NCBI GenBank assembly: GCA_036172245.1
Contig: JAYWIR010000004.1
Span: forward strand, 1,116,001 to 1,180,000
Direction of reading: 5' to 3'
Length of the DNA stretch: 64,000 nucleotides
Origin: Raillietiella orientalis
Taxonomy: Eukaryota
The stretch's first letter is position 1. The number at the start of each line of letters is the position of its first letter. The translations under genes were made by a program, and so were the position numbers. Shown piece after piece: positions 21,101-57,694 of the stretch. Below the pieces are notes generated by a model, which saw only the letters and a program-made list of their open reading frames with translations, ran no database searches and had not been told where the DNA came from.

Positions 21101-22793
21101 CAGGACGAAGTCGTCGCTGGTTGCGGTTGGTGCAACGTGGGCAGGACGACCTGATTGGATCCGCCTGGGGATTCCCACGGAGAGGTACTTGAAATACCTC
21201 GGCGTTCCGTTGGGGGACTTCTGCCAGTCAGGAGCCTGGTCAGGTCGTCTCCAAAAAGTGGAGTCAGCGATCGGCCCGTTCCTGGAAGGCAAGCTTCACT
21301 TGCAGGAACGGGCGGCGGCGTGGAACGCGTTCGCGGCCCCCCTCCTTCGCCCCTTGCTTTTCATTTGCCCCGTACCCCATGAATTGAAAAAAAGAACAAA
21401 GGACCTACGCATCGCCTTGTGGGCGGCGGGAGGCCTCGTGTGCCTTTAAAGGATTTGTGCGCTCCACGTCGGGACGGAGGTCTTAGAGTCCTGACGATGG
21501 AGCGATTGGAAACACAGCTGAGGTGGCGTACTCTAGCCATCGCAGCGAAGATGTGGAACACCCCTTGGTGCGTTCCAGCCCGCCTTCTCGCCAGATGTGT
21601 GTCCGGGACTGAAGGACTCGCGTCTTTTCTTCTGTGCTCCGGCCGGAAAATAAGAAGATGCGGACTTCTCCTGGGACGCATGGCCACCCTGGCAAAGGAG
21701 AACGGGTGGATGGCCTGCAGCCCCGCCAACTCCAGTGCATGGCTGGAAGAAACAGTTGAAACGTGGGCAAAGTTAAAAGACATCAGTGGAGAATCCTGCA
21801 ACCGCCTGCGTACCGGCATCTACACCCGCTGCACGCTGCGGAACATGATCGTGTGTCCCGCCAGAAGCACTTGGGCGGAGACGACCCCACTGGCCACGGC
21901 GGTGCCCTTCCTACGAAGGGCGCTTCAAAACAGCCGGAAGCCGAGATGGCAAGTCTCCTGCCGAATCGCAGGCAGAAAGAAGTTGATCAGCGGCTGGACC
22001 ATGGGAGAGCTGGCAGACGCCACGACCCCAAGCGTTCACCCGCATGGAATACGGAGATGGAGCGAGCTGCTTGGCATCCAGGCGGATGACCTAGAGTGGC
22101 CCCCGTTATTTAGAGACGCATTTACCTTCCCCCTCAAGTGGCAGGAAACGGCGCTGTTTTTGTTGCACTGGGGTCTTCCCTGCAACGCGCGCCGTCACTA
22201 CTGAACGTTGGGGAACGTGGGACAGAACTGTGCAGTGTGCGAGGAGAAGGAACCCCTCCCCCATCTGTTAGTGGACTGCGCTGCCCTCCGGCCCTTGTGG
22301 GAACGTTATGCTACGACCCTCCCTATGCCGGTCGGCAGTACCCCCAGAGACGTCTGAGACTCCTCTTCGTGCGAGACGCCCTGCCACCAGCCTCAACCCT
22401 GGCAGCGCTCTACTGCCTCCGAGGGACTGTGGCCTCCTGGAGCGCAGCCAACAGAGGAAGCAGCGACAGGGACCCCATCGTACACGCGGGTCGCTACCTG
22501 CGAATCGCGATCGGTTGGTCCCATCTGGGAATTATGACGAGGGACCTCGAGGGCATCCTGGAAAGGATGGTCTCCTCCTCCAGCGGACAGTGATCCCTTC
22601 CCGGCCCTCCAAATAGTTTCTTTTTAATTACTTCATTTATTTTTCTTTTTGTTTTACCCCCTATCCCCTCCGCTGCCGAGGAGAGACAAGCCGGCCTCAG
22701 AACCGGCTTCCTGTCAGGTCCCATGAAATATTGGCCGTAGCGGGGCCTAGTACCGCAAATGTAAAGTGTTTAGAAATAAACGCCCCGGCGTGA
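18130..22793 (+). mobile_element. Decayed L1/Tx1-like non-LTR retrotransposon A (APE endonuclease, RT, C-terminal Zn finger, structured 3' tail)
   Basis: APE motifs WNVNGL, LLQE, VYAP, G(V)DFN, DHVF and SDH. RT motifs KAPGKDDLPAEFF, WRPITIVNTDAKLL, DLHKTFD, RQGNSLSHLLF, YADD and YLKYLG. Several stops and frameshifts are present. Interrupted at 18297-19183. Confidence 0.92.
18297..19183 (-). mobile_element. 5'-truncated antisense LINE copy nested in the endonuclease of element A, with a 14-bp TSD
   Basis: agggggtcgtctgt at both 18283-18296 and 19184-19197. The insert encodes LLHWG...CKRCWEVETLPHLLLDC (zf-RVT-like) on the minus strand and ends ...aataaacgcccggcgcacccgggtgataa. Confidence 0.9.
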
Positions 22794-24999
22794 CCGATTG
22801 AAAACTACCTGATCCAACGTTTCACGCTCCGAGCGGGCATGCGGAGGTGGACGCAGCGGCACCGTTTGTCCCGAGCTCGTTCCCTTCCTGCAGTCGATTC
22901 CAAAGCGCCCACGAAGCCCTGAGACGGTGAAGGTCAACGGCGCTTGCAGATTGGTAGCAACAACAGCCAGAGCACCTTTTGTTGTCTGCCCCCCGCGTCT
23001 CCTTGTAGCGCTCCAAGGTAGCGTCCTGTGGGGACTTCTGACAGACCATTGCCGCACTCCAGAAGGGATGGTGCATCAGACCAGGCTTCGCCCGTCCAGC
23101 GCAGCAGTCAGCTCGCGGGGACTTTTCCCGGTCCCACCACACAACATAAACACGCGAGCGGGATCGAGGTAACCGTTGTTTCAGTGACGCAAGCACTCTC
23201 TCAAGGCCTTAAGGAAGATCGAATTGTCGTGCACACAGTCTTTGAGATCATCGAGTCTTTGAGAGCCGGAAGTGCCGGTTGGCGTATCGCGTTCGGTACT
23301 GCTCGGCGCGAGCGTTCATCCGCTGCCTAGCACCTCGGAAAAGAAGGCCACAGGGCGTGGTCGAAGCCACAGCCTCGAAGTTCACCAGCAGCGAAGCCGC
23401 AGGACTCGTACCGGAGTGTCACGAAATCTGAGCCATGCAACCGGATCGTTCGGAGCAGCCAGCATTCCTGGAGAGTTCCGCGCCCTCCACTGGCGCCCTG
23501 CTCCGCACAAGATGGCTCTGCTACACGCTCGGCGGCGACGCACAAGGCGAAAAAAAAAATGGGACGACTTCTCTCTAAGCCAAACCTAGGCAGGGGGGTG
23601 ATGGCTTGGGTAAGTGTGCCAGCCTCCATCCGTGAGAGGGCCGCAAGAGTCACACGGATTCGGCCGCGGACTGAAGGGTATCTGCTTCCCGCTACATCAA
23701 GGACAGAGAGGATGAGCCGCACGCGCTGGCGCTGCGCCCCTCGCGCTGGTCTGCCAGAGAAACGCCGTAGCGACACAAGAAGACACTACCTGATGCGAGG
23801 CAGGAGAGCGGCGCCACGATGATCATCACCCAGTGGAGTGGCATGTCGCCCGAGAAAGATGAGCGATTCGGCAGCTGCGCGCCACGTATGTATGCGCGCC
23901 GGTCGCTTCTCAGCCCCGCGTGCTACAACAGGGGCAGTGTTCACGGCTCGTCTCCGTCCTCTTCTACCGTATCCTCCAATACGGAGATGCAGTCGGGATT
24001 CATCGCTCGTTTTCCGGATCTCAAGACCAAGATCCGAAGTTCCCCACTCAAGGCGGAATTCCAATCCACAGAGAACCCGAGGGCATCCGAGACAACCGGA
24101 TAGCTCCCGTTTTTGGGGCACGAGCCGCGTCAGCAGCGAGGGGTCCTCACCGCTTGCATGGATTCCATCCCGGGCTGGAGAGAGTCGAACGGCTGCGCGC
24201 CGTTCCAGCGAGGCGGTGGTGGTCATGCTCCGCTGCGACAGCCGATGTCGCCTTTAGGCCGCAAAGAGAGAAGAACGCTTCCTCCATCGGAAAAGAAACT
24301 CGCGCAAGGAAATGCAACCCTCGACATCCGCAGCCTCGAAGCCTCTGCGGCTCTCCCTCCCAGTGCAAGATAGGAGGGCGCGGCGGGATGGCACTCGCCC
24401 AGTTCGCCGGTGCGCTCCTCCATCCAGGAGCGCGAGATGAAGATCTCACGCGCCTGACGATGTGCGTGGGCTCGTTTGCAGGGACCCGAAGGGTCCAACA
24501 ATCCGTCTATGAGTCTCCTCCGACAGCCCCGCACGGTGGTCTCAAGCAGATGTGTGCGGCTCTAGCGTTCGCCGGGAGGAGCCCTCGCGAACAAGTGAAA
24601 TGGTGCGCCGAACGTACCTCGGCGGGATCTTCTTCTAGAAAGGGGAGGTGCATGCTCGGCCTTGGTGCGGGCGTTGTAATCCCTGCTGCACTCGATTTTG
24701 CTCATCTGTCAATGCAGCGAACTCCTCCCAGGCGCCCGACGTCGGGCCCTCCCCCTAGAGTGCGGGTTCCCGGGAAGGCCTTCCTCCTCTCTTGCCCTTC
24801 GGTAAAAACTGCCGGAGGCCACCTCTCATGGAACATACGTTCGCAACCTCCAATGCGATCCCAGTCTCTCGCTGCGTAGATGCAGCATCGAGCTAGAAAG
24901 TTCCGGATGGTCGCAGCAGCTACGTTTGCCCCTCTCCCCCAGCCGGCGCCCTTATTGGGAAATGGCGTGGAATACCGAAAAACAGTCATCGGGAAGGAA

Positions 25000-25345
25000 A
25001 AGGAAAAAGTCTTTTATTCGTAGTGGAAATGTCACTCTCACCTTCAGCGTCCCCGATAGAGGGATTTCTGCACACTCCCTCGCAGGGACAGGTGAGAGGA
25101 GTGTGAAGAATGAAAAGAAACAACCAAATGAAATAGCTGCTTTCCGAGCTAAAAGGGGGAAGGGAAGGAGGGAACTAGGAAAAGGGGAGAATCATAGCAG
25201 ATTCCCTGGCGTTCTCTTCATCCTCGCCAGGACACTGGCGAGTTCCTCCTTGAGGGTCGTTGGGCACGGCAACCTCCGTCGCGACCCTCACGGAAGAAAT
25301 GACTGTCGAAGCGGCTTCCTTCCTATTCTGATCCCTTCCCCGGGC
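25000..25345 (-). mobile_element. Antisense 3' fragment of a related LINE
   Basis: The minus strand encodes LKEELASVLARMKRTP, like KQELANILTRMQKTP at the end of element C. It is followed by a pyrimidine-rich tract and a tccc-tgcga-ggga hairpin. Boundaries are approximate. Confidence 0.6.
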
Positions 25346-25347
25346 AG

Positions 25348-27255
25348 TTTAGCACCTACTTTGAGTTGGTGCTGAGAGCGTATAGGGTGACTTTAGCCCC
25401 CTTGCCGAGCTCGTGCCCCGGCACGCCCGCCGTTGCAGCCTATGCCGACGATCTTCTGCTCCTGTTACCTATGTCCACCCCGGCGAAGGCGGTCGGAGAT
25501 TTCTTAGACCTGCTCAGCCGCGGGACCGGACTGCAGGTGAACATGGCGAAGTCGTCGGTGGTGCCAGTTGGTGCAGCGTGGGCAAGGCAGCAGGACTGGG
25601 TCCGTTCTGGGATCCCCACAGCCAGGTGCTTCAAGTACCTTGGTGTGCCGTTGGGGGACTATTCCCCTGCGGAAGCGTGGTCCAGCTGCCTCCAAAAGGT
25701 TGAGACGGCAATCGGCCCGTTCCTGGCCGCGGTTTGGAACGCATTTGCGGCCCCCATCCTCCGCCCTTTGATTTTTGTGTGCCCCGCCTCCAGAGAATGC
25801 AAAAACAGGAGAAAGGACCTCCTACGTATCGCCCTTTGTGGCAAGGGGAGGCCCCGAGTCCCTCTGAAGGACTTGTGCGCTCCGCGTCGGGACGGCGGTC
25901 TTGGCCTCCTGACGCTGAAGCGCGTGGAAATCCAGCTGCGATGGCGCACCCTCGCCATCGCAGCGAAGATGTGGAGCACCCCTTGGTTCATTCCGGCTCG
26001 CCTCCTTGCCAGTCGTGTGCCCCGATGCGAAGGACTCGCGTCTTTTCTTCTGTGCTCCGGCCGGAAGATCCGAAGATGCGGCCTACTGCTCGGGCTCATG
26101 GCAATCCTGGAGAAGGAGAACAGCTGGATGATTTGAAGCTCCGCCAACTCCTCCGCCTGGCTGAAGGAGACTGCTGGCACCTGGGCTAAGCTACACCAGA
26201 GAAGTGAAGACCTCATGAATTGCCTTCGTGTCGGCCCATACGCCCGCCGCACCCTGCGGGAAATACTTGAATTTCCCGCGGGTTGCACGTGGGCAGAGAC
26301 GACCCTCCTTGCTACGGCGATGCCCTACCTCCGGAGGGCGCTTAGCGGCAGCCAGAAGCCGAGGTGGCAAGTCTCCTGCCGAATCGCAGGCAGGGACAAG
26401 ATGTTAAGCGGCTGGACCACAGGAGAACTGGCGGACGCCACTACACCGAGCGTCCAGCCGAGAGCACTTTTGCGATGGGGCGAGCTGCTCGCCATCCCCA
26501 TGGATGTGCTGAAGTGGCCCCCGGTGTTGTTTGAATCAAGGATCCTGTCCCTTAAGTGGCAAGAATCGGCGCTGCTACTGTTGCATTGGGGTTTACCCTG
26601 CAACGCACGCCGCTTCCACTGGACAAGGGGAGCGGTGGATCCTCATTGTGCCAGGTGCGGAGAGCGGGAATCGCTGTCCCACCTACTTGTTGACTGTGCT
26701 GCCCTCCGTCCCCTCTTGGAATGGTTCGGGACGACCCTCGGTCTCCCTGTGGGCAGCCAACCCAGCGACGTTCTCCGTCTTCTCTTCGTTCGGGACGCCC
26801 TTCAGCCAGCTGCAGCCGTGGCAGCACTCTGCTGTATTCGAGGCATCGTGGCGGCCTGGAGCGATACCAGCGAGGAGATGGTGGATTCAAACGCGATGGC
26901 TGTCATCCCATATGCTGTTCGCTTCCTGCGGAGAGCTATTGGATGGCCCCAGCTGGGAAGACTGAAGACGGACCTCGAGGGTATCCTGATAAGGATGGAC
27001 CCTCCTCAAAGTGGACCGTGATCCCTTCCCTTCCCTCCAATAACTCTTTTTTTTTTTTTTTTCTTTGTTTTCTGGTTTATTTTTCTTTTTGTTTTTCCGC
27101 CCATCCCCTTCCACTGCCGAGGAGAGTCACACCGGGCTGCGTCCCGGTGTCCGGGCAGGTCCGGCATTAAGTGGCCGTTAGTGGGGCCTTGTACCACATA
27201 CTGTAATGACGAGTGAAACGTTTTTTTTAATAAACGTCCCGGAGTACCCGGGTGG
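25348..27255 (+). mobile_element. 5'-truncated L1/Tx1-like element B (RT C-terminal half, zf-RVT, structured 3' tail)
   Basis: YADDLLLLLPM, FKYLGVPLG and CARCGERESLSHLLVDC. Collinear with element A from about 20908. The tail is aataaacgtcccggagtacccgggtgg. Confidence 0.9.
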
Positions 27256-33590: not shown

Positions 33591-36354
33591 AAAATCGTGT
33601 GTCAACCAGGACGGCGGGAGTCTCGATGTACACGGCGACCTTCGTTCGGTGGTCCACGCTCCCGCGTACAGCACGCGAGTCGGAGGAAGCGGCGGCGCCA
33701 CGCACGCACCCAGCCACAAGCTCCGTGACGCGATGACATCCACATCCGCCTGCTACGAGACGACCGTCGGCACAGAGGCAGCGGCTGACACAACAGGAAC
33801 CAGGGGGTCGCACGCGGATGGGCGGTGGACAGCCTACTGGCTAGCGAACACGGGGTGCGTGATTCCGCCAAACGAACACGCGGATGGGCGGAACATCTGG
33901 AAAGCGATCGGCTGCGTCCTACGGCCAAACAAGGCCGAGAGGGGTAACTCCGCCTCCGGGGAAAGGCGAATCCGCTCCGCAACTCCCTCCGTGGCACTGC
34001 CATCGCAGCTACCTCCATGGTCACGTCCACCGCGCCCAGCGCTGCTTGCCTCGAAGCAACGACGTGGCATCTGCTGTCCCCCTTGGCAACCGAGGTGCGA
34101 GGAGGCAGTCGGAAGGCGCGCTTTCTCCTCCGGGAGCTGCCAGTCGTGCCACTCTGAGTACAAGCCACGCTGGACTGCAGTGCGTTCAGCAGCGACGCAG
34201 ACTCAGCACAGGAGGTCGCCTACGGGGAAGCAAACAACGAACTCCGCTGCAGCACACGCCCAGGAGACTGGGCAGCTTCTCCCAAGACAACTGGTGGCCC
34301 CTCCGAGCACACCCTCAGAACCAGCCGACCACGGCGTACGCAAGCGCCAGCCGACGAGAACTGGCACGCCCGGCGCCCAGATCGCAACAGCCTCCGAAGA
34401 GCGCGCTTACCAACAACATGCAAATGATCCTTCCTGCTTATGTCAAGGGCCATAAAGCACAAGACTTTTGACGTCAATGTAGGCTGGTCACGGGATCAGA
34501 CCGTGATGAGAACTTCCATGGGAACCCCGCATTGCTACAAAATACTTTTCCGAGGAGCACTGAGAACGGTATCGTCGGAAGACATTCCCTGCTGACACCG
34601 CGAGATTCCGTTCCGGGGTCCCCACTTTCCGCAGTCCTTACAAAGACTCCTGTGGATCCCCGTGGCAGCATTGCGCATCCACGTTCTCGTCCGAAACGGA
34701 AAAAGCGCCGGCTGCCCTCAGCAGACGAGTAGGGAGACGGCGCTCTCACGGACGCGCTCTTCCGGCCGCACGCAAACCTCCCCGCGCTTTGCAGAGGACT
34801 CTTGAGACGATCTGCGACGGTGCTGCCACTGCTAATTACCCATTCAATGCCGAGTGCGAGTCGCAACACACAACGCTGCTAACGATACAGAAATTCATGA
34901 GTGCCCTCAGAGCACGTAATTGACTTTGGGATCCGCTCTGCGGGTCAGGTGTGCAGCACGCGTTAAAGGAGCGCGCGGCTTGAAACAAGACCGTGCTGCC
35001 TTCGGTGCCAACGAGAAGGAACGATGGGACTATCGCATGTTCTCTGGCTGGTGAGTGCTCCTTCCTGTCCCCCAGGGTGGCGGAGGACCCCGCTCTGCAC
35101 GCAAAGATCGCAGTTCCTCACAGACAGAAGAGGGAAGGTGCGGCTGCAGGGGAATCTTTTTGTCTTGCAGATCACCGCCTTGCTGCCCGCCCAGCACATG
35201 CATGCGGCAGCTCTTGCCCGGACGGCGACGGGGGGATGGAAAAGCCGTTTCGAGGTGAGCATGCCTGCGCGACCTCCTCACCACGTTTCGCCCCCAAGCG
35301 GAATGCCGCTTCCCCTTCAATCAAAAAAAATTCTCCTCCCATGGGCAACTCCGAACTTCGTTTTCCCGCACCTCACTCGGACGAACTCCTCGCCCTCCCG
35401 TGGCCACTAGCAAGGAGGACGAGTTCCCGACGCGAACGGAGGATGTACTCCTCTTGGTCTTCCTTTCGGTTGGGAAAACGGCGGATGCGCGCCTCAGAGA
35501 CCGCCCAGCAACGCCTCACCATGTCCAGTGCCAAGCAGGCCCATGGGGACCGGCACGAGAAAGTCTGGAGGGCCCCTCGTTCCGCGGATCACAAGTCCAC
35601 ACGTTGCCCCCTCCGTATGGGGCTTTGAGCAAAAATTCCTGCGAGCGGCCCTCAACAGCCTTCCTATGGTGCCCTCCTCTCCCCCCGCTCACCCCACACC
35701 GGGATTCCGTTTGTTCGATCGCAACAGCGGCAATGGAAAGCAGCAGCGAAGAGCTTCCTGCCTCCGATGCCGCGCTTCCGCTTTCCCCGTCTTCCTCAGA
35801 CCGGCGACTTCCTCGCTGCAGCGCTCATCCCCGAGCATTGCAACCGGCTCACCGATCAGTCCTCCCCCTTTCCAGAAGCCATTGCGCAGCGCAAGCGTAG
35901 GTGGACTTTGCGAGTCTTTGCGCTAAAGACGCCGGGCGCTGACCACGGATCTGCACCGCGAGGAACAGCAACCTTCGAGCGCTCCCGACGCCGCAAGTGT
36001 CCAACGGACTGAGAAGTCTCCGTGAGGAATCCTCATCACGTTTTCTACAAGGCAACTCGTCTGCCAAGACCCGTACTCACGTGTGATACGGTTGCACGTG
36101 CCATGTGAGCGCACCTCCGTGAGCGCATCCCAGCGTTACTTGCTAGGGACGCAATCCAATCTGTCTCGTGGGACGCGCCTTTTCCGTAACCCCTCGATTT
36201 TCCCCGCACCCGATGCTGCTCTCCGAACCTTTGAGCGGACCGAAGCCGAAGGATGACGCGATGCACTCGACGACATCCTTCTGCGACCGTCTCCGTGTCC
36301 ACGATCTTCAGCTTCCGTCCCGACGCACTCTCAGAGCGCCCGTTTCCGTTTCAG

Positions 36355-39300
36355 GGAATTGGAAAGAATCCACCGCACACTCCTTTCGGAGATGTTCTTC
36401 ACGAGGGAGACATTGTGCTCACAGAAGAGCAGCAGTGGTCCTTGATGGAGAGAGCCTGCTTATTAAAAATGCATCTTTGGCCGAAGACTGGACTGTGGGT
36501 AGAGGTTCCCTTTGCACTTCATCATTCGGGTATGTACCTTTTGTGTACCTAGTTTTGCTCTTCCCCTTCTTCCTCTCTTGCGTCGTGCTGACTCGCAGAT
36601 TCAGCAGCTTGCAACCCGTCACTTGGCTTTGGTGAGAGATTCCCAGACCTGGTGCTATACGACTGTACGCTTCGACACGCTTTCCCGGTGAAAGTGTCTT
36701 CTCATCTCAGTCATTTCTTGCTTCTGCTCGCTTCCTCGGAGTCAAGGTGATGCTCATTCTGGAGAGCGAACCTTTAATCTCCGATCTGCCAGAGCAAATA
36801 GTGTTCCTTACTCTGCCACATGATTGTAATCTTAGCTTCCGGAGATCTCAGATGTTCGTTGCTGCTGGCGGTTCAAAACTTTGACCGCTGGACTTGTATC
36901 CGATTCTTCCAAGTACCTGAACACGATCCTCGTCACAAGATACTGATTGGGAGCTGGAATGGCTGCTGGTCCCTTATCGGAAAGCAGTCATCAAAATCAA
37001 ATTTCCAAAAATTATCCCTCGAAGGTGATTGCCGATTGGTAAGTGCATTTTATACGAAGACTTAGTCGCTTCGATACCATATATTTGCGCGGCTTTCTTC
37101 TGGGTGCTTCTCCACGGATACAACACAACATACTCTCACACGGATTCTCAAGTCTCGCAAATAACCACGTGCTATGCTCGACGCTCACGTCTTAAAGATC
37201 AAGCGTCTTCCTCACAAACGACCGGCAGCTTCCAAAAAGTGATTGCGGATTCTCGCCGTGTGAAGCTCAAAGCATGTCTCGTGCCTACCCTTCTCTCTTT
37301 TGAATGCACACACCAATTTTATTTTAGAGGTCAATTCCAGTGCACGAATTAGCTCATGCCATTGGATCTCAGCACGAGCACTCGAGGTCAGACAGAGACA
37401 AATACGTGAAAATTTTGAACGAAAACGTCAACATTTCGGTGGCTGCCAATTTTGAGATTGAAGACTGTGAAACCGAAAACGTCCCCTATGACTACTACAG
37501 CATCATGCACTACGCAACGCAAGTAAGTTTTGGTTTCCCCATTACCATGGCTGGTGTGCGGAAGAACAGGTGAGGAATGACATCTTCTTTTTTGAATTTC
37601 CACTTACCCTTGTCGAGTCAAACATTCCTTTGCTACTCAGCTGCGTTCTTCGTGGATGCATTTCGTTCTCTCTGTCTTCCTTTGAACTCGCGACACTCTC
37701 TCAATCCAAGTGCGAAGCAGAGACTGTTTCTCCTGGAACCCTTTGGAGATGACAGCATGAAGCATGTTTCCCTTATCCTCAATCTTTTCTATTTCTTTAC
37801 ACATCTGTCGCAGAACCTTCATCGCCATCGATTGATCAGAGCAGACGCTGAAATGCAGTTCTGTTGAAGAGAATCCTCCCTAACGACACGAAAGACCTGC
37901 GTTATAAAATACTCCTGCGACCTCTCCTTCTGCACGATTGCCTCTGCACGAAACTTCACGGCATTCTTTGCCGCACTCCTTGCAAACTGTGCCATTATCG
38001 GCCTTCATTGCAAGACGATGGAGAAAATCGTTGTCTTTCATTGATGGCTCGAAAGCACACGGAATCACCTACACAAACACGATCCACGAAAACGAACGAC
38101 GACATCCAACCTCAAGTGCAGTCCCCCTCCATCATCAGTTAATAACAGAAATAGGATTCGTTTGCGGCAGAGCCGATATCCACCACGCAGATCCCTTAAA
38201 TAAACATGTCCCACGGAGAAAGTCAGCAACTGAGTAACATCATTCTCTTCTCACATCTGAAAAGTTCCTCGCTTGCCGTTGATTGCGATCTTTATCCATA
38301 CACAATTGCAGCAGGCCAGAGATCCTCCCTGTTAAGAGTGGCAAGCAATCACAGACTTCAAGCAAAATGCAAGCCGCCAAAACAATGCATCCTCGCAGAC
38401 TCATTCACGTTTTCACCTCATTTTATTTTTCGTTACGTATTCAAATTTACGTTTTTCAGACAGGGAGCAGCAACGGAAGACCCACCATAGCAAGTCTAAA
38501 TGTGAATATGCAAACTTTCGTTGGTGCGAACACTCAAGGATTGACCTTCAACGATGCACTCGTTATAAACAAGAAATACGGATGCATCAGTGAGTTTTTC
38601 TCCTCTCTGCATGCAGGACGCCCTTGCGTCTTCCACGCTGTCTTGTCTCGGTTGCGACACCAAAGTCCCGCCATTTGCGCACTCTTCCCTATGATGCGGC
38701 GATGCAGCAGACCTCGCATGCGAGTTCCGCAACGTAACGCTTGACTAAAAACGGAAACTACGACTGAAAACCAAGCATCCAGAAGTCCTCGATTTTGAAG
38801 CACCTCTTGCATACGACTGCCTTTTAGTAACCAGGAGCAGAGTTTCTGGATCATCGCTGAAATCTTTTCGCAAGTCACGACTTCGAGGCTCTGCTGCACG
38901 GAGAGAGGAGAGGACTATTTCAGCGAACCGACCGGCTCTTCGCACTAGGAAAGATGATGAAACCGAGACAGGATTCAGCTTCCAGTGCAGGCGGGACGAC
39001 ATGGCACGAAACTCCGAATCTGCAAGGTTGCCTACCCAAAGACCACCTGGCACTCACGACACGGTGGTGGACTCCTGCTCCGAACTTCACCAGTGCAGTT
39101 CGACGGATGTTTTCCAAATGGTTCAGCCTCTCGTGCAAAGCGAACCAGCCCTCCACTTCACTCCTTGCGATGGGAGCTGGAAGCAAGCACTTTCTAACCG
39201 ACCTTGCTATCCTTCATCTCCTTGCTCATTTTTACTCTGTGCCAAGCAAATTTCAACCAACTCTGCTTCGAGGCGGACCTCGCACGGATCTTGGACGCGG

Positions 39301-42173
39301 TGGCAGGAGGGATCCACTTCACCATTGAGGAAGATTCAAAGCCGCACAGTTGCCATGAGAGGCGCTTCGATGCAACAAGGAGAGTGCTCCAAGTTCAGGG
39401 TAGAAAGTGCCTTCCTTTCCACCATATTACAAGGAGAGCTTACGGTAACACCCACGGAACAAAGTGATCTTCGCTTCCAACAACCACTTGCACGAAAAGT
39501 GGTCAACGGGAACGTCTCAGATTGAATCACACGGAAGAAAACTCGATGAACCAGAGTTTGTTTCTCACCTCTAGCCATGCGTCTTTCGCCCAGCAACTTC
39601 GAGTCAGCACGCAAGATCTTAGCTATCGACCCTTTTCCTCCGCAAACCCCCAAATTCGTAACGAGAGACTAAAAAGCTCCGAATCTGTGCAGGATCTGCT
39701 CTTTGGCCTTGCCGTCAAGCTTTGCAATCCTTGCCCACGACGACTTCACACGGTGGTGGTGGGCTACACCTGAGGCGCATCTTCTCGTCTTCTACATAGC
39801 AGGCAGCGCACCAAAATCATCTGTTTGAATCCATGAATGTGCGAAATCCCGGAAGCTGTCTCCGTCTATGCATCACACACACTCCATGAACACTGCTTCA
39901 GCGACATCAAGAAGCGGCTAAGAAACCCAGGGAAGATCCACCCCTAGCAACCGCGTGTGTGCCTTGCACTCGAGCCGACACATCCGAAACTTCCGCCCCG
40001 ACGCGTCCCTTGGCTAACAGCGCGCTCTCCAGTTTGATCGACAGAGCACCCACGTTTCGCAGCTGCACACGAAGATCTTCGCGGAAAATGGGTTTTGGAG
40101 ATTTACTTGGACATGCGCTTTCTTTCGCCCTCATATCAGTTTGGCGAGTCGCCCTCCGGCTGTCTGTCACCTTGAAAAAAGTCTCCAGAATTGACAGAAA
40201 GCGCGTGATGAATAGTTTGTCGGGGCTCTCCACTGCAACACGGGATGTTTTTCAGGAGACTGGATGAGCGCATGCAACTTGACCTCCAACCCTTGCTTCA
40301 ACGACGGTTTCATCAATCAGTACTGTCAGTGCACCTGTAAACCCACATTTGGAGGGAGCGTATGCAAGGAACCCATTCAGCCCATCGGTAAGCATTGGGA
40401 AGTTGTGCACCCTGGTTTTCTATTTCCTCCTCGTCATTCGGTGTTGGCACCGGAGTCCCACGCTCAGACCTCGCGCATTTTGCAACCCTCTTGGCGCTCT
40501 CACGTGGCGTGCTCTACGATCACTTGTCGATGATGCGATCCAAGGATTCTCAAGCAGTCATCCGAAGAGGCAGAGAACTTGCTGTGAATACGTGGACGTC
40601 ATCCAGATGACCTCTGCAGGGTCTCTTGTTTTTCTTCCTCCCTGGGCACTGACGGACGCTCTCCGTCTTCGCAAAGCACCTCAAGCTTGTCTTCGAAGGT
40701 TTCGAGAGCGGAAGACCCCAAGGAGGACACGGAATGTCTCGTTCCCCTTCAGTCCGCGATCTCCCACCTGTCGCAGCTGGCGCTCTGTGAGGCACGAGAC
40801 TCCTATTCCCAAAGAGCAGGAGCGATTTGCTCAGGAGGGAAGAGGGCCACACGGAGACGCAGCCCAGCACCTGGAGCAGCTCGCGCGATTCTCACGGCCT
40901 TCTGGTGCTGTGCGCCCCCTCCCTCCAACGGAATCACTTGCGTCTTCTGAGAGCTCCAGAAGTCAGCCGGCCTCTGGCCTGCTGCGGTTCCCTCGATCTT
41001 CTACCATGGCGAGCGCATTCCATTCTCGAGAATGGAACGGATCGCTCTGATTGCCGATTTTCGTTCTCTCTAAGGATTGGTTGCTGGGATGGCCATCGAT
41101 TCCTGTTGCGGGATGCCGATCGAAACCCGCACTCCTCAGGAGCTGTGCATCAGCGACCGATGAGCTGCTTCTTCGCAGACTAGCATGATCTCCCCATCCT
41201 GCATAGAACTTTGCTCCCGGATCACTTCGTGCCTTAATGGGTCGCTCCACAATTCCCAACGTGAAAAACCAAACAGGAAGGAACCTCCGAAAACAGGAGA
41301 CAAGCTGCTCGTGTGCCCTTTGAGAGGACATCTTGGCACAGCCCCCCGAACAGCCGCGTACCTACGAGCACCGACAGAACGATTTCCGTCTGATGGTCTC
41401 GAGAACTCAACCGTAGGAGCAGCCAAGAAATTTACGATCAGGTGCTGAGGTTCTCAACTGGGCGATGCTTTGCTGCGACCTCCTGCCAGATCGCTCCATC
41501 GAATTACGAGGAACGGGTTTCCGGCTTCCAGATCGAGTTTGCGATTCGGTTCTTGAATGTTCCCGTCGCATCCGGCCACCTCCAGCCTCTTGCGTTTGCA
41601 TGGTCTTCTTCAGGCACGCTCGTTTGCTTTAGCGTTTCCGAAATCCGCAAGAACCACTTAGACGAAACTCCTCCATCAATATGTCCACAGCCAGTTGCCA
41701 TGGATCGAAACCGGTAGCGACAAGAGTTGATGCACATTTCTTGTGTCCATAGGGATGACTCCCAGCATTTGCGGAGGCAACGTCACACAAGAGGGAACCC
41801 TGGTTTCACCTCAATGGCCAAAAAGTCTTACTTGCATCTGGGTAATAACTGCACCCAGAAACAAATGCGTGAAACTCGTCTTCACCACTTTGTACCTCGA
41901 AAGTAAAAACTGCATGTACGAGTCGGTTTTTGTGCAGCAGAAAGACATCCACAATGGAACTGCGTGAGTAGTTCCGTTCCGCCGCAGGCTTCCACCATCT
42001 GCATTGTCTTCTTGCATAGATTCTGCAACGCTGACCAGCTGCCCCCAGGAAGCGAGTTTGTTTCTCAGGATGAACAGATGGTCGTGATATGGAAAAATAT
42101 TGGACACTCCCAATCAAAAGTCGAAGCAGTCATCAGCTTCGTCCCTCGGCAAATTCCCGTGCATGCGAAATGA
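36355..42173 (+). CDS. Astacin-family (nas-like) zinc metalloprotease with EGF and CUB domains; exons about 36355-36529, 36836-37038, 37328-37522, 38460-38590, 40255-40387, 41753-41963, 42020-42173; first exon(s) not located
   Basis: Pro-region HEGDIVLT, then WTCIRF, GCWSLIGK, the Zn motif HELAHAIGSQHEHSRSDRD, the Met-turn YDYYSIMHY and GLTFNDALVINKKYGC, followed by EGF and CUB exons with canonical splice sites. Confidence 0.9.
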
Positions 42174-43118: not shown

Positions 43119-44830
43119 TGAGCGGTGAGGTCCTCTTCGCTGGCGAAGGGGGAGGAAACACCACAGAAAAAAAAAAATACAGGGGAGGGCAATGTCTCCC
43201 AGGGAGGGGAGTGCAGGCAAGGAATCAGTTCTCCGCGAGGGGTATTCTGCATCCGAGTTTGGATGCGGACAAGTGCCGGTCGTAGTGTGCGTAGCTGGCG
43301 CCATAGGGAAGCCTTCTCCATTAAGATGGCTGCCAGCGAATGGCATTCCGGCTACTTCAGCCTCTCCTCGACGCATACCATTTGTCCAGGATTCCGCGTA
43401 TGCTGCAGAGAACTGCTACACACGCAGCTGCTGGCAAAGCGTCCCGCATCAGGAATTGACGGAAAATGTTTTTCGGGTGCGGGATCGATGATCAGGTGCG
43501 GGAAGGTTTCCCTTTCACCGCAGCCTGCACAATTGGCATCCGGACTCCCTAATGTTCAGTGGGAGAGGTATGCTCTGCAAAGGAGTCCCCAATGTAACTC
43601 TAGCAACGCCGTCTCCTGCCAATCCAAGGAGAGGCAACCATTGTCGCAACGCGCTGGGGGCCACTTCACTTCCTCTGGGGGTATGCCGAGCAGCTCGCCC
43701 CAGCGCACAAGTCCTTTAGGCGGGAACTCGGGGTTGTAGCGTCCGCTGACCCCCGAGTAGTCCACGCATTCAAGAGTTTTTTCCTGCCTCCTATGATGCA
43801 GTACACTTCCCACGATGCCTATTCCTGGCTGTCCCTAGGGTTCTCTAGCTCGGGCAGCACTGGGGCAAGGAGAGTAAATGAAGCCCACGGAAGTTTCTGT
43901 TGGTTGGAAACGATCTTCTGCAGGGGGTGTCCATAGTACCTGCCTCTACGGAGGCAGGAGAAGTCCACATCGTTTGAGCCGTTGATCTTAGTCCGCGCGG
44001 AAACTGACTCCTGAAGCCAGGTTGTCCAGTTCGAGAGGAGACAGGAGATCCACTTATTTTCTCTCACCAGGGCAACCAAGTCACGCAGCTGAAAACAACA
44101 ATGGTTCAGACTGTGGTCGTTAGCCACAAGGATCGAGGTCAATCCGTTGCAGCTGGTTGCCCTACTGGCGAGGAGGCGTGTAGGGGCGCACCATGGCGCT
44201 GCCCAGTATGTCGACACAAGGTCGAGTTTGCCAATTTGGAGCTGTCTCTGCATGTGCTCCAACGTCAGGAGGCCTAGTCTACCGTCCCTGCGTGGAGAGC
44301 ACAAGTCTTTAAGACGGACGTGGGACATCTGTGTGCCCTACAGGGCTTTTCTCAGGAGGACCTTTGTCCTCTTCTTGATTTGGAGTGGGGCGCGGCGAAA
44401 AAAAAGTAGGGGGCGAAGCAGGAGGGCCACGAAAGCGTTCCACACCGCGGCCCGTTCCAGCAAGTAAAACTTGTCGTCCCGAAACGGGCCGATCGCCAAC
44501 TCCACCTTTTGGAGATGATCGGACCAGGCTATTGCTACGCGGAAGTTCCCCAACGGAACGCCAAGTTACTTAAAGTACTGCCCGTGGGGATCCTCAAGCG
44601 GACCCAGTCCGGCCGTCCAGCTCACGTTCATCCAATTGTTATCATCGACGACTTCGCCCTGTTCTCCTCCAGGTCTGTCCCGCGGCTGAGCAGCGAAGAA
44701 CTCGAGAGCAGAAGCTCGGGTGGACCCGGGAAGCAGCAGCAGAAGATTGTCTGCATAGGCCGACACTCCTGGCGTGCCGAGACACGAGCTTGGCAGGGCT
44801 GTCAAAATCTCCTTGCATACTCTTAGCGCT
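43119..44830 (-). mobile_element. Antisense 5'-truncated L1/Tx1-like element
   Basis: The minus strand encodes SAYADNLLLLLP, ERAAVWNAF, RLKDLCSPRRDGRLGL, WQETALLELHWGL and a CAGC...HL Zn-finger remnant. Confidence 0.88.
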
Positions 44831-51066: not shown

Positions 51067-53413
51067 TCATCTTTTATTGCCTTTCCGAAACGAATGCTTT
51101 CTTTTCGCTTGGCTCGTCTGCGATGACTTCCGAGCGTGGTGACGGATTTTCGGACCTACGTGCGACGGAAGAGTTTTCGGACCTCCAGCAGTGGTCAAGT
51201 AACCGGTATGCGATCCGGTTGCTAGGTCCGCTTTCCTCGGAAGCGAACTCTTCCCGGCCTTCGACTGGAATCTTTTCAACTTTCGAAACTGCCCTGACGC
51301 AGGACCGCCTCTTTTCTCTGGCATTTTGGCATCCTTCGGTCCAACCAGCTTCTGCGCCAATCTGCTCTTCTCCAGCCGTCGCTGACGGGCGAGTAATTTG
51401 CTACGGTTCTCCAGGGAAAACTCCACGATCGGTCTCTGAGGTTCGAGCGCTAAGTCAAACGAAACGGCGGTCACACGGCTGCTTACCCGAGCCTCACTGA
51501 ACACGCTCGGGTTGTTATTCAGAGAGCGAAGGGCGCACAGTGCATGCTCGTGTTGGGCAAATGCAACGAAGCCGTATCCGCGAGATGCACCCAAACACGG
51601 TCCACTTGGGCCGCTCCCACTCCTCATGACACGAGCTTCCGTGATCCTCGCTCCGGAAGGGGCACTTTGCAAAAACAACGCTTTCAGTTCGCGGTCCGTC
51701 ATCGTCGCTGGCAAATTATGAATGCACAGTCTGCAATCGGAAATAAAAATGTGCAGGTTTCGCAATTTCTGGCGTTTCCAAATTTCCAGATGAGCACGCA
51801 ACTGGAGATCATGAGCGGATACTCCTTTCGCAGCTTGCGTATTCGCACGAACCACTGAAGCAGCCAAAAGCAGATTTCCACACCCAACCGACATAGCGAT
51901 ACGTACAGCCTTCTCGCACCAGGTACAGGTTGCGCTTGTCTTTGCCAATCTTCGGTTTCGAGGAATTCGTCAACTTCCTCTGGACTTCCTCCCTGCTTAG
52001 TGCTGGCAACACTTCCAGAACGTTGCCATTTAGCATCAGTTCATCCTCAGTTGCCATCAAGCAGACTTCGGCATCTTCTTTGTTCTAAAACATCCAGGAC
52101 ACCCTGATGTAGACCACCTTCAAAGGAAACATGGTCGGGCAACCTCACCAGGAACTGAACAAAGGCAGTGCCTCGAGGATGTTCCGTCACCGAATCAATA
52201 ACTGGTAGAGCATACTTCACGGCACCAAACTGAACCATCAAACCACACAACTGCTCTGCACTCGTATCGGGATGTACATTACGAACAAAGACGGTGCAGC
52301 CTTTGTGTACATCTTCAGACTTCCTAAACTTGAATGTGCACCTTTCATAAGAAATTCAAAACCACGAAAAACGCAACTCACGGTTTCGTCTGCATTGGTT
52401 GCAGTGTCCCACCGGTGTCCTCTTTATCATCAGAATCATCGGATTCATCTTCAGCACATTCTTTCAGAGTGCTACTGGTTTCAGCCTCAGAGTGCTCCTC
52501 GCTGCTTGAGATCAACCTTCCACTACTTGGCTTTGATGCCTGTGGCAAGTCTACTTTCAGAGTTTCATCTGCACTCGTCTGTGTTGACGATAAGAAACTG
52601 GATTGGGGGACAGCCCAGTCCACAGCCAGCAGACGGCCTTTGAAAACAGTACCATGCAAAGCTTTCAGAGCTCTGCTAGCTTCTGGTACTTTGCACATTT
52701 GCACAAAGCCACAGCCTACCATGCTACCATCATCCCGGTGGAGCAAATTCACTTCCAACACCTTGCCAAAGGGAGCAAGCAAGTTTTGCACATCTTCCTT
52801 TGTACACTGACAAACTCGTTGATTGCAAATTACTTTCAAGAAAACCTACCTTAAAAGAAATATTTCTCAATATCAGCCTCGCTTTCTTATTCCAAACTTT
52901 GGCTTTCAACAACGGTTTACGTGGCTGTGCTGGGGGGTGAACTCTGATCTTCAAATTCTTCTTCGGGGAGCATTCCTTCCCATGTCTTCTAGCAAATTTT
53001 GCAATGATCTTTCTCCCATCAATTAGCAGATTACTGCAATTCTGCTTGGCTTTCAGCGCATCTTCGTTGCAGCGGAATGCTACGTAGGCCACCCGCAACT
53101 TTCTCCCCTCTAACAAAAGGAAAGAAGGAAAATCAAACTTAGCTGTGGCAAAAACGAAACAGAAAAGCGCAATGCCGAACGCCAACACCATTCGCAAACA
53201 CATACCGAATGCACGCTTACGTTCGGACACAAATCCCCACTTCCCAACTCGATGCATGCCTTTCACGCAAACAGTCCCATACATACCATACTTCGGAGTT
53301 AGATAGCATCGAAGCACTGGCACGATTTCCTGAAAAACATCTTTGATCTTTCTTTCTGTAATGCAATCAGGAAGGTTCGTTAGCAGCAACGTGTTGCTCC
53401 CGTACTCGTTCAT
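51067..53413 (-). CDS. RBM28: RNA-binding protein 28 / Nop4 (4 RRMs, nucleolar)
   Basis: KKARLILRNISFK, GCGFVQM...GRLLAVDWAVP, an acidic linker, TEHPRGTAFVQF, GKDKRNLYLVREG, RLCIHNLP, SRGYGFVAF..HEHALCALRSLNNNP and RPIVEFSLEN. Confidence 0.95.
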
Positions 53414-54849
53414 CGCGTCTTACCTCGCACGGGAACGCAAAAGTCGACAAACGCAACAACAGAATTACCAGTCGCACTGCACTGACTACCATTTCGAAAA
53501 TAGGACTCCAAGATCGATTGTTTCGGAAAGGTGAAACGAAGTGGGACACGTCAACCTAATGAGAAATATCAGGGTCCAACAAGCGGAAAAATGCGTGCTG
53601 AAAAAAATTGAAAGAATTGTACTACTAGGCCAGAGGCAGGCATTCCAGTAAGGAAGAAGCGGAATTTCATCCCTAGGAGTTGCTCGCTTTCGCACTTTGG
53701 AAAAACAGTCTATTCTGATACGTGATGCAGACGACTTGTCGCTTTTTTTTTTTTAATGCGATAAGCACGATCTTTCTCTCGTTAAATACCCGCATGTATG
53801 CTGAAAAATGGTCTAGCATAAAGCTTTCTTTGCATTTTCATAGGTAGTCTGGAATGAGTTTTCAATTGATCCATTTGTCCAGTCAGTCCAAAATATGGTT
53901 TACTATTATCTGCATCAAAACGTTTCAGACACGGGAGGATTTATGAGAATTTTTGTATAAAACAGGTTCGTTTCAAGGGAAAAAAAGCAATGATAGAACT
54001 AATCCTCATATAGCTTTGATTATGATAAAAAGGACAGCACGTATTGTGTTCTGATTATCTCGAAAGTAGAAACTTCAGAAAAGCATTGAATAAGAAAACA
54101 GAAAAATATCCTGAAGTATGTATTTCCAGCTTTTGTAAAAGGTGGGTATGAATGATTTGTAAACCGATTTCTGCAGAAAATCTATTTGCTTTTTTTAATG
54201 GTGAGTCTTGTTTGTCTTTAATCGATTGTCGTCGTGTACATGAGTATGAATCCTTTTTGTCTTTTAGAAATATAACTCTCGTTGTAAGTTTGACCAAATC
54301 CTCCGCCTGAACTGGTCATTTGCACCGGCCGACTAGGAATTTTAGAAATGATTTCCTTGGAATAGAGTCAACTTATGTAAAGCCCAGACTCGTGTAGATG
54401 TGCATCTGTGTTCATTTTTATGTCTCAGGAGTTTATGTTCCCCGGATTTTACGATAACAGAATTTAATAATTTTTTCTGACTCTCTTCTTTGTCGTCTTA
54501 TGCATGTGTGCAAAGGATGTGATGTTTCTGACTCATTTGTCCTGAGTGTCAACATGGGATTTCCGAGGGTTGAAGCGCTTATATTTATAATCAACAATCG
54601 CGATATTAGATCACACCAAGCCAAATATTCAGAATTCTCAAAGAACTTAAAATTGTTTATGGAGCGCATAATGTATTTCGCAGTCGTGCTTCAATTGAGG
54701 AGAGAAAAAGCATGGGAAGAAATTAACATATTTATAACCAATGGCGCCTATTTTCTAGTTTGCTCAAGTGCATAAATTCTGACTCTACTGGAGTGAGATA
54801 CTTTGAAGGTAAATCTTATCTATGGTAATGGTAGCTCGTCTTTGGTTCA

Positions 54850-57694
54850 TTACTCCTTTCCATGATTCTGTCTGAAGAAACATAACAGCGACTCATAATT
54901 ACTGATCTTAAGAATCTGCAGAAGTTCCGGAATCTTGTGATTAGTGTCAATTCCTGATAGCTTCTGTTGATCAATGTACAGATCCATGATGATACCTAGA
55001 ACAATTTACTACTAGAGAATTGAACCAAAGCATTAAACTCAACCATGGAGTCGCTGCAAGTAAAAAGGATGATGGCGATCCTCAATATACAGGATATTAC
55101 TATCTTGCCAAATGTTTTCCAAGTAATCATCTCGAATTCCCATAACATCGGCATCTGTGCCTAACTTTTCCATTGCTTGCAGCAGTTGCAATTTTTGTGA
55201 TAGTAACCATTGTTTCTCCAGTTTGGGCTGAAGAAGGCTCAACATGAACTCACTACTGTTTCTATCCACATCTAAAAGCCAATACCCAACCAGGCAATGC
55301 ACTTTACCTTACCACAAGATATTTTGATTTTCGTTCCTGTATCAGTTGCCAGCCTTGTCAACACATCTTTCAAGATGAAGACCACACTTGGACTGTGGGA
55401 GCGACAACAAGCATAACCACGCCTATAGTCAAGTAACAGCTGAGCATCTGTTAGAGCAGACCGGAAATAGAAGGTTGCAGCATCAGCTGGACAACATTCA
55501 GGAAGGCCATGAATGCATGATAACAGCCAAGTATGCATCTGATGTATGCTGAATTGGCCTTCCAGTATCACCTGCGAAGTAGGATGCTCAGGATAGAAAC
55601 CCTGAGTGCGGTAATGCAAAGAAAGAGGCACAACAGGAAAACGAAGTGCTTGTCCTATTTTTGGCACCAAACAAAGGATGTACACCATCAAAGTACCCTG
55701 CTGACCCTCAGTAGGGCGCAGGCTAACTTGCAAACTGCAAGTATTGGTTTGGAAACGAAAAACGGCCAAGAGGCAGTTGCTGGTGTCACAAGCAGAGAAA
55801 CTAGTGACAGCAGAACTGTGTTCACAGTCTTCAACATCCAAAGGGACATCACTCTGCAATAACACTGAATCCAATGGTATGGGTGCCTCCAAATGCAGCA
55901 AATAACAGGCTGCATCCTTGCACAGCTCCCACTTGATGGAATGCTCAGCAAAAACAGATAACAAGTTCTACTCACTTTACTCTGAATGGTTGGTGGCAGA
56001 ATGTACATGGAAGTTCTGTGGTCAGTCTCCTGAGACTCCTTTTTCTTTCTTGCTAGCCTCAATTCTAACATCTCGATTTCTAACCTAGAAAGGTAAGACA
56101 TTCCTGATCAAGATGATTGCTCAGGCTGAAGCACAGCAGTGTACCTTAACTGGTCAACAGTTTCTTTGAAACTCATTCCCAGAAAGGATGTAAAACCCAG
56201 CAACCATCCTGAAGCAGGATCTCAATCTAAACCCCATTATTGTCATTTCTCACCACTTCTTGTGACGACAAGAACTTCTATTTGGGAATCACCTACTGCT
56301 GCAGCTTGTGTACAAGTAATGAAGTCTCCACAATACTACAAACAATTCAATGATAAACAGGTTTAAATAGATACTTCCTAACCTCATTAAACATCTGTGG
56401 AGGTGGTACACCATTTTCCAATTTATGGAGTTCAATATGACCATCCTGTTTCCCAACTAGCAGCTGAGCTGTGTTGTTTGCAATCCATAATTGAAGAGCT
56501 ATCACTGTACCACAACTCTTTTTGTCTTCCACTAACCACAACAATGTTGCACTATCACCACTATTGGCCAAAAAATACTGTTTGTATAAAACATTCCAAC
56601 TTACTTTATTTGAAGTGCACCAATATGACCCATGGATGTGCCAAAGAGAAACTCGTTTTGCTCCTCATGATCAAGCAAGCAAGTTGCCACTCCAGGTAGG
56701 CTGATTTCCAACAATTGTTCTTTTCCTTCTATTATTTTTAACACACAATTCCCACAACCCACTGCTGCTCTTGGGACCTGCGGAATACTATGTTGCACAC
56801 ATGATGGTGGTGCTGCTGACATGCAAAGTGCATAAATAAAAAAGCAGTGCATGTTCCCCATACTTTGTTCCTAGCCAGAATAGTCAAAGCAGTGATGTGG
56901 TCAACAGCTACATAATGATGCACTTCTCTCCCTTTCATATAATGGCATAATGTGTGCTTACCACAGAGCAGCAAGTGTCCATTCCATACAGACCTACATT
57001 TAATTAGCAACTTGGACAAAGTGAGCCAACTTACAAAAATTGAATATCTTCTAGCAAACTGGTCTCCAATTCCAAAAACTGTCTCCCATTCCCTTTAAAG
57101 CCTTTGACTTGATTGCGAACACTCACATAAATCATGTCCTCTTCTACAGAAAAAATGAAAATCAAAACAAGGCATTGAAAATACAACCACCTTGCTTATC
57201 AAGTTGTATTTGTGTGATTTTTGCACCAGTGAATTCCCTAAACTGAATGGTCAATTCTCCTTCATTTCCTTGCAACTGAATAATTTGAAGATACCCAGAC
57301 GAATCTCCCACAACTACCTATGAAACAAAATGAAATCATTACACAGACCATTCATTAAGCAAGATGAACTTGGGTGAAGTGCTACATGTTAATTAAACAA
57401 TGTTTTGTTTTTGTTTTTTTTATAGCTTGTTTCCTTGACTTATAAAACTATGATGATAATAAATGAAAATTATTCCAAGGTGTGAAGTGTGCGAACGTGT
57501 AATATCCTTAATACTAATTGATACAGTTTATTCCTTCGAGGAAAACAAAAATCAGTCTTAAACGCATGCATTCATTTTGAAATGCACATAACCTTTGGGT
57601 GTGGTATTTTTTGCTCTGAAGGTAGCACTTTTAGGCATGACGGTGCAACTGCTCCTAAATTGCAGTATTCTACTCTTGTGAAACAGGCATCCAT
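54850..57694 (-). CDS. BBS7: Bardet-Biedl syndrome 7 protein (BBSome subunit), multi-exon
   Basis: MDACFTRVEYCNLG...KVVVGDSSG, KGFKGNGRQFLELETSL, LLQSDVPLDV, PTEGQQGTL, PLSLHYR, GQFSIHQMHTWL and LQRLHGIIMDLYIDQQK follow the BBS7 sequence pattern. Confidence 0.92.

Follow-up and report, generated by a model that had tools for sequence, protein, structure and literature searches.

When duplicated genes undergo gene conversion, a peak of divergence can stand between the copies, as described by Teshima and Innan (2008) and, for exon 5 of the primate red and green opsin genes and the RHD/RHCE pair, as reviewed in PMC3924837. The conversion-selection mechanism itself is thus already known. Among proteases, the BMP1/tolloid astacins are described as carrying substrate exosites on their CUB and EGF domains (PMC9848320). 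Here we examine a cluster of astacin genes in which a block of the CUB domain differs widely between two copies, A and B, whose adjoining introns are nearly alike, and we weigh selection against neutral conversion as its cause.

The window analysed here is a stretch of 64,000 nt (G000:C4:1116001-1180000), which holds all of gene B and the 3' part of gene A. Searches of the assembly recovered at least six copies at the nucleotide level, all within about 210 kb; copy counts throughout are lower bounds. The cluster consists of five complete astacin-EGF-CUB genes (A to E) and one fragment (A0), of which A0, A and B lie on the plus strand and C, D and E on the minus strand. All five complete genes have nine exons, GT-AG introns and an open frame of about 436 residues, with a common order of domains: a probable signal peptide, a prodomain, the astacin domain, an EGF-like exon and one CUB domain spread over exons 8 and 9. 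D and E are recent duplicates, while B and C sit in the left and right arms of an inverted duplication (arms of about 27 kb, spacer of about 59 kb). The parts of the two genes that lie in the window, and the arm that carries B, are as follows.

562-693, plus strand: gene A exon 7 (EGF-like), placed by alignment; A exons 1-6 are upstream of the window
2156-2366, plus strand: gene A exon 8 (CUB), with which B exon 8 is compared, placed by alignment and Pfam
2423-2576, plus strand: gene A exon 9 and stop codon, placed by alignment
27258-54031, no strand assigned: left arm of the inverted duplication, carrying B; the right arm (G000:C4:1229114-1255677) carries C, and the arms are 92.8-98.5% identical by segment
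35024-42173, plus strand: gene B, a nine-exon astacin-EGF-CUB metalloprotease with a 436-residue open frame; 8/8 introns GT-AG, frame open to the stop, Pfam Astacin and CUB matches on single exons
35024-35254, plus strand: B exons 1-2 (35024-35050, 35171-35254), probable signal peptide (judged by eye) and prodomain start, identical to A
36355-36529, plus strand: B exon 3, prodomain with an astacin PP-like motif (EGDI; motif described in PMC9629494) and start of the catalytic domain
37328-37522, plus strand: B exon 5, zinc motif HExxHxxGxxH and SIMHY Met-turn, by Pfam and motif
40256-40387, plus strand: B exon 7, EGF-like, no Pfam match; the five genes are homogenised here, with 1-5 of 132 nt differing
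40388-41752, plus strand: B intron 7, near-identical to A (A/B 34/1365) and about 20% from D
41753-41963, plus strand: B exon 8, first two thirds of the CUB domain, by Pfam CUB and PCPE-1 alignment
42020-42173, plus strand: B exon 9, remainder of the CUB domain and stop codon, by alignment; last 69 nt identical to A

The astacin (M12A) zinc motif HExxHxxGxxH and an SxMHY Met-turn occur in exon 5 of A to D (Pfam Astacin E 6.3e-20). The EGF-like exon between the catalytic and CUB domains has six cysteines and gives no Pfam match with an E value of 1 or below, and the CUB domain has four cysteines common to all five genes (322, 343, 369 and 388), as in two-disulfide CUB domains, with PF00431 above cutoff in both window copies. 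The CUB exons also match PCPE-1 and cubilin chains. A protein homologue search with the CUB exon scored 0 of 1 candidates; compared with representative proteins, exon 4 gave 11 distant matches (E 7e-07 or weaker), the named clusters among the seven examined being lamprey and cnidarian.

Several other features of the region deserve mention. Gene E (G000:C4:1289700-1301600) has Asp at the catalytic Glu of the zinc motif, and relative to D its intron 3 is 2.2 kb longer and its intron 5 about 850 nt shorter; to judge from its sequence, E is possibly a non-catalytic or decaying copy. RRM-domain open frames occur in the left arm at 51067-53419 of the window, and a BBS7-like exon (GAE and platform domains) lies just beyond the arm at 55272-55967 on the minus strand; a protein homologue search with this exon scored 0 of 1447 candidates. 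Several decayed reverse-transcriptase elements, 64-74% alike, are found between and beside the protease genes (19584-27021 and 43999-44827). The fragment A0, in which the 5' flank is joined to the end of intron 7 and followed by exons 8 and 9, falls within a 15.8-kb direct duplicate of the 3' side of A (G000:C4:1083799-1099636 versus 1117846-1133646) whose 21 substitutions all lie near its ends. This is a very recent duplication, the outcome of recent conversion or an assembly duplicate. Since A0 arose very recently, if not in the assembly itself, we take no independent evidence from it. Elsewhere in the assembly, two pairs of loci (L035/L036 and L045/L046) are identical and have identical coordinates on contigs C65 and C77, which suggests that these contigs are redundant.

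A sequence-only reading of this window had reported that the CUB exons of A and B are 24 residues apart, the EGF exons 2 and the last exons 4; recounting and realignment gave the same figures, with 39 of 211 nt differing in the CUB exon. Both CUB exons are 211 nt long, bounded by AG and GT, and match Pfam CUB PF00431 (E 3.1e-09 and 5.6e-08). That the exon is more diverged than its introns is borne out by intron 7 (39/211 versus 34/1365, Fisher p 4.7e-17), the 3' part of which differs at 14/871 sites plus an indel of about 87 nt. Intron 8 differs at 3/56 sites and the 3' flank at 24/714. The surroundings are near-identical, as described, in intron 7 and the 3' flank, but the likeness stops shortly before the EGF exon, with 130/454 sites differing in 39707-40163. 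Nor does the divergent block coincide with the exon: it extends from 41800 to 42106, starting 47 nt inside exon 8 and ending 87 nt inside exon 9. 'Hypervariable', the term used in that reading, overstates the case, as the six copies carry three CUB-exon types (A equal to A0; B and C 4/211 apart; D and E 0/211 apart), with A and D differing at 45/211. Across the 160 sites of the island core, A and B differ at 38, A and D at 34, and B and D at 45, which points to three lineages of similar age.

Gene conversion had been proposed to homogenise the locus, and the mosaic of the cluster confirms it, with topology switches, long identical runs and tracts with donors. The 569 informative sites among A to D show 24 topology switches (permutation mean 338, minimum 297 in 2000), and identical runs are longer than in any permutation for six of six pairs (p 0.0005, the floor). 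Outside four islands, A and B differ at 113/7447 sites, a background of 1.5%. Two of these islands are intronic and have a D-like donor; the other two have no close donor.

36974-37335, plus strand: second A/B island, covering the end of exon 4, intron 4 and the start of exon 5, by sequence comparison
38078-38369, no strand assigned: D-like tract of B within an intron (A/B 76/288; B/D 7/213 in the core)
39707-40163, no strand assigned: D-like tract of A within an intron (A/B 130/454; A/D 16/454)
41800-42106, plus strand: A/B divergence island, CUB codons 332-415, indel-free (core 41800-41959 38/160; intron 8 3/56; 5' half of exon 9 11/87)

Conversion also reached coding sequence elsewhere: C shares 35721-36975, from intron 2 to exon 4, with D at 2/1254. 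Tracts of about 210-1250 nt have crossed 11-29% divergence in the cluster, so divergence alone is no block to conversion here. Conversion has encroached on the CUB block from both ends: A and B show a single difference in the first 47 nt of exon 8, where D is 11-12 sites away, and none in the final 69 nt of exon 9, where D is 14 sites away. The stretches homogenised relative to D and E centre on the conserved exons 3, 6 and 7, as expected of homology-seeded neutral conversion and the reverse of what is seen at the CUB island. High-divergence segments show no overall exon enrichment (22.5% versus 14.7% for A/B, and 7.6% versus 15.2% for B/C). Opposite 41184-41262 of the window, gene C carries a private 25-nt hairpin-forming insertion, suggestive of template switching, and opposite 39511-39576 a private 66-nt block that differs at 22 sites and for which 264 kb of sequence yielded no donor; a micro-inversion origin of the latter was rejected, as no inverted match extends beyond 7 nt.

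The A/B pattern recurs in a second, distant astacin-EGF-CUB pair, G000:C13:67000-70700 and G000:C51:970600-974400, both on the minus strand (loci L048-L053; two of two matches), which is the cleaner case. Exons 2-9 of this C13/C51 pair differ at 106/1233 sites (8.6%) and the introns at 25/2448 (1.0%; p 7.8e-30), and all seven of the variable exons exceed their neighbouring introns. Homogenisation is confined to exon 2 through the stop codon, with flanks 15-20% apart. As homology is largely limited to the gene, paralogs are favoured over very diverged haplotypes, judging from the alignment. The pN/pS ratio is 1.55 (p 0.13, not significant), and 2.23 in the CUB exon.

We suggest that the island is best read as sequence that selection has shielded from conversion, the pattern modelled by Teshima and Innan and seen in the opsins, and we regard this as probable. 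A and B would be old paralogs, originally about 20-25% apart and separated for as long as either is from D/E. Repeated interlocus conversion would have overwritten most of the gene, bringing background divergence down to 1.5%, while selection removed those tracts that overwrote the CUB core. The two proteins would need different CUB surfaces, most likely as exosites for different substrates, by analogy with the CUB domains of BMP1/tolloid. Old silent and replacement differences would then persist jointly in the core, with tracts nibbling from both sides and across intron 8. The age of the block is visible in its silent sites, which are 19% diverged in the CUB exon versus 2.5% for intron 7 (p 5.5e-6); since silent sites are as diverged as replacement sites, the CUB exon is old rather than fast-evolving. 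Selection as the cause is what we infer from the shape of the island: narrow, inclusive of silent sites, indel-free, and unlikely under neutrality in a simple model with an island defined post hoc. In particular, intron 8, 56 nt long and inside the island, differs at only 3/56 sites between A and B, compared with 15-16/56 to D (p 0.004), and is less diverged than the flanking silent sites (p 0.017). This inner homogenisation is not what a single neutral tract predicts. Two further observations speak for selection: the island is the reverse of the stretches homogenised relative to D and E, and the pattern returns in the C13/C51 pair.

That a single neutral tract is nonetheless responsible would mean that A and B are recent, homogenised copies, one of which acquired a tract of about 300 nt whose source was an old third paralog, now either gone or sitting on a haplotype that was not assembled. 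The island, at 307 nt, is indeed sized like the intronic tracts whose donors are present (288 and 454 nt), A0 is a copy that lost exons 1-7, and gene C has short donor-less islands that are wholly intronic (22/66, 14/79 and 15/120), so lost donors or local mutation bursts do occur. Yet a tract from a 20%-diverged donor should have brought a diverged intron 8 with it, not one with 3/56 differences, and the seven-exon pattern of C13/C51 would be left unexplained. The donor itself is missing: matches to the variant segment in the assembly were the cluster's own copies (six of six, a lower bound), the only A-type partner being the near-identical duplicate A0, and no A-type CUB donor occurred among the 15 distant CUB loci recovered by protein search (29-41% identity; 0/15 similar at the nucleotide level). 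The cassette exchange proposed in the sequence-only reading therefore holds for tracts with a named donor (the two intronic tracts of A/B and the intron 2-exon 4 tract of C) and not for the CUB exon, which has no donor among at least six nucleotide-level copies. A runs test gave no significant sign of D-derived micro-tracts within the island (23 switches versus 23.3). We also considered cDNA-templated exon replacement and rejected it, as there is no donor, intron 8 is kept with 3 differences and the island edges lie inside exons. Neutral import of this kind is, in our view, unlikely.

Alternatively, conversion may have been late, or limited to a few long events, such that the block has simply not been overwritten yet and now hinders conversion through the mismatches it carries. 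Suppression of conversion by clustered mismatches is reported in PMC3728101, and the other island that overlaps exons, at 36974-37335, does centre on an intron with large indels (intron 4 is 1013 nt in A, 289 in B and 691 in D), a neutral barrier. The CUB island, however, is indel-free, and elsewhere in the gene divergence of this order did not stop tracts of greater length. We simulated two copies evolving neutrally at a constant conversion rate, conditioned on a background of 1-2%, with an island taken as at least 32/160; the island under study had been picked after seeing the data. With mean tracts of 150, 400, 1000 and 3000 nt, the accepted runs that ended with such an island numbered 0/3621, 30/3875, 77/4151 and 64/4342, or 1.9% at most. 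Unconditioned runs at low rates (3-5) left an island in 34-98% of cases, but with a mean divergence of 5-8%, not 1.5%. A neutral remnant thus seems improbable.

Still less probable is an ongoing arms race, with the CUB exon changing its amino acids rapidly since a recent homogenisation. Between A and B, pN in this exon is 0.180 (30/166.3) and pS 0.193 (9.0/46.7), an omega of 0.93, which is high for a folded domain, as is the 1.20 of A/C; A/D and B/D give 0.77 and 0.38. Relative to D, replacement sites are as diverged (0.20-0.23) as introns (0.20-0.21), and the ratios of the C13/C51 pair point the same way. Against this, silent sites are equally diverged, B/D omega is low and six copies hold just three types. 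No dN/dS above 1, overall or for a site class, was significant in codon models on A, B and D (M0 omega 0.60-0.72; M2a versus M1a p 0.33-0.54), where three lineages give low power. The earlier proposal that selection keeps the CUB diverse is accordingly our best reading in the sense of old differences retained, and not in the sense of diversifying selection, given the omega of 0.93 and these site models.

The distribution of the CUB differences was assessed on loops assigned manually, from the PCPE-1 alignment and the loop nomenclature of PMC8051872. Loops are more variable than strands (19/50 versus 8/56, p 0.007), as an arms race would also allow, with the highest density in L5 (7/11). The odd loops, described in the same source as the ligand site of calcium-binding CUB domains, show no significant concentration (12/35 versus 15/71 elsewhere, p 0.16). 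Moreover, on this manual alignment the differences fall at both ends of the sandwich rather than on a single face. For the host-facing surface that the sequence-only reading offered as an option, these results give no support. An N-glycosylation sequon is swapped between A and B (352 versus 383), and B and C have an extra cysteine at 354. An AlphaFold prediction for exon 8 alone (12-row alignment) was set aside, with pLDDT 66, pTM 0.45 and no strands of at least 3 residues.

Finally, an assembly or polishing artefact that made the introns look alike is very improbable. In its favour, no substitution separates A from A0 over about 13.9 kb, contigs C65 and C77 look duplicated, and the CUB exon is not covered by the contigs of run X1 (one DNA run, 0.05 share). 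On the other side, private intron variants and indels occur in each of A, B and C, and converted tracts are sharp with named donors. Two X1 contigs also argue against wholesale mis-polishing, if not at the CUB exon itself: one is identical to B along 204 nt in which A, C and D show 6-14 differences, and the other, spanning the homogenised EGF exon, has all of the 14 D/E variants listed there. The run and the assembly may not be independent, however.

If selection is the cause of the A/B island, the homogenised background serves as a natural control, and the 28 CUB and 12 cleft-lining residues, which together make up 40 of the 48 A/B residue differences, are a short list for the functional difference of the two astacins. 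The cleft-lining residues come from the second island, whose 12 differences fall at positions 142-166, from the upper-rim strand to the loop before the zinc helix, in a segment that exists in four versions (in A, B/C, D and E); across the exon 4/intron 4 junction even D and E, nearly alike in the rest of their sequence, differ at 13/60 sites. It is tempting, if tentative, to go further: that introns are alike and exons different may be a rule for whole protease families, with ectopic conversion very frequent and selection very efficient, and the only old A/B blocks, the catalytic cleft-lining segment and the CUB core 4.5 kb away, may form a coupled cleft-plus-exosite specificity code. The replicate pair suggests that this genome is suited to tests of the conversion-selection model at scale. 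Literature searches on astacin gene conversion among CUB paralogs returned nothing on this system, judged by title; none was found on paralogs with introns more similar than exons under gene conversion, and those on crustacean astacin family expansion with positive selection returned only unrelated work, again judged by title. To our knowledge, there has been little mapping of exosite specificity in the CUB domains of invertebrate astacins.

On its testable features, then, the A/B island appears to belong with the divergence peaks found between duplicates under gene conversion. As described for the opsin and RHD/RHCE pairs in PMC3924837, introns are homogenised and a narrow exon peak includes silent sites, with no structural barrier; here, in contrast, at least three lineages exchange tracts, and the cluster is known from the sequence of one assembly. 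Among arthropods, the GOT1p1/GOT1p2 paralogs of Tigriopus californicus, as presented in PMC3728101, likewise combine indel-free exon islands amid conversion with chimeric copies, but that pair is without introns and has been studied in populations, whereas A and B are copies of a nine-exon protease. As to the proteins, they share with the astacin (M12A) proteases that carry C-terminal EGF and CUB domains, as outlined in PMC9848320, the prodomain motif, the zinc motif, the Met-turn and the CUB domain, along with a putative EGF-like domain; they differ in having one CUB domain only, and in that the 11 exon 4 matches include no close relative.
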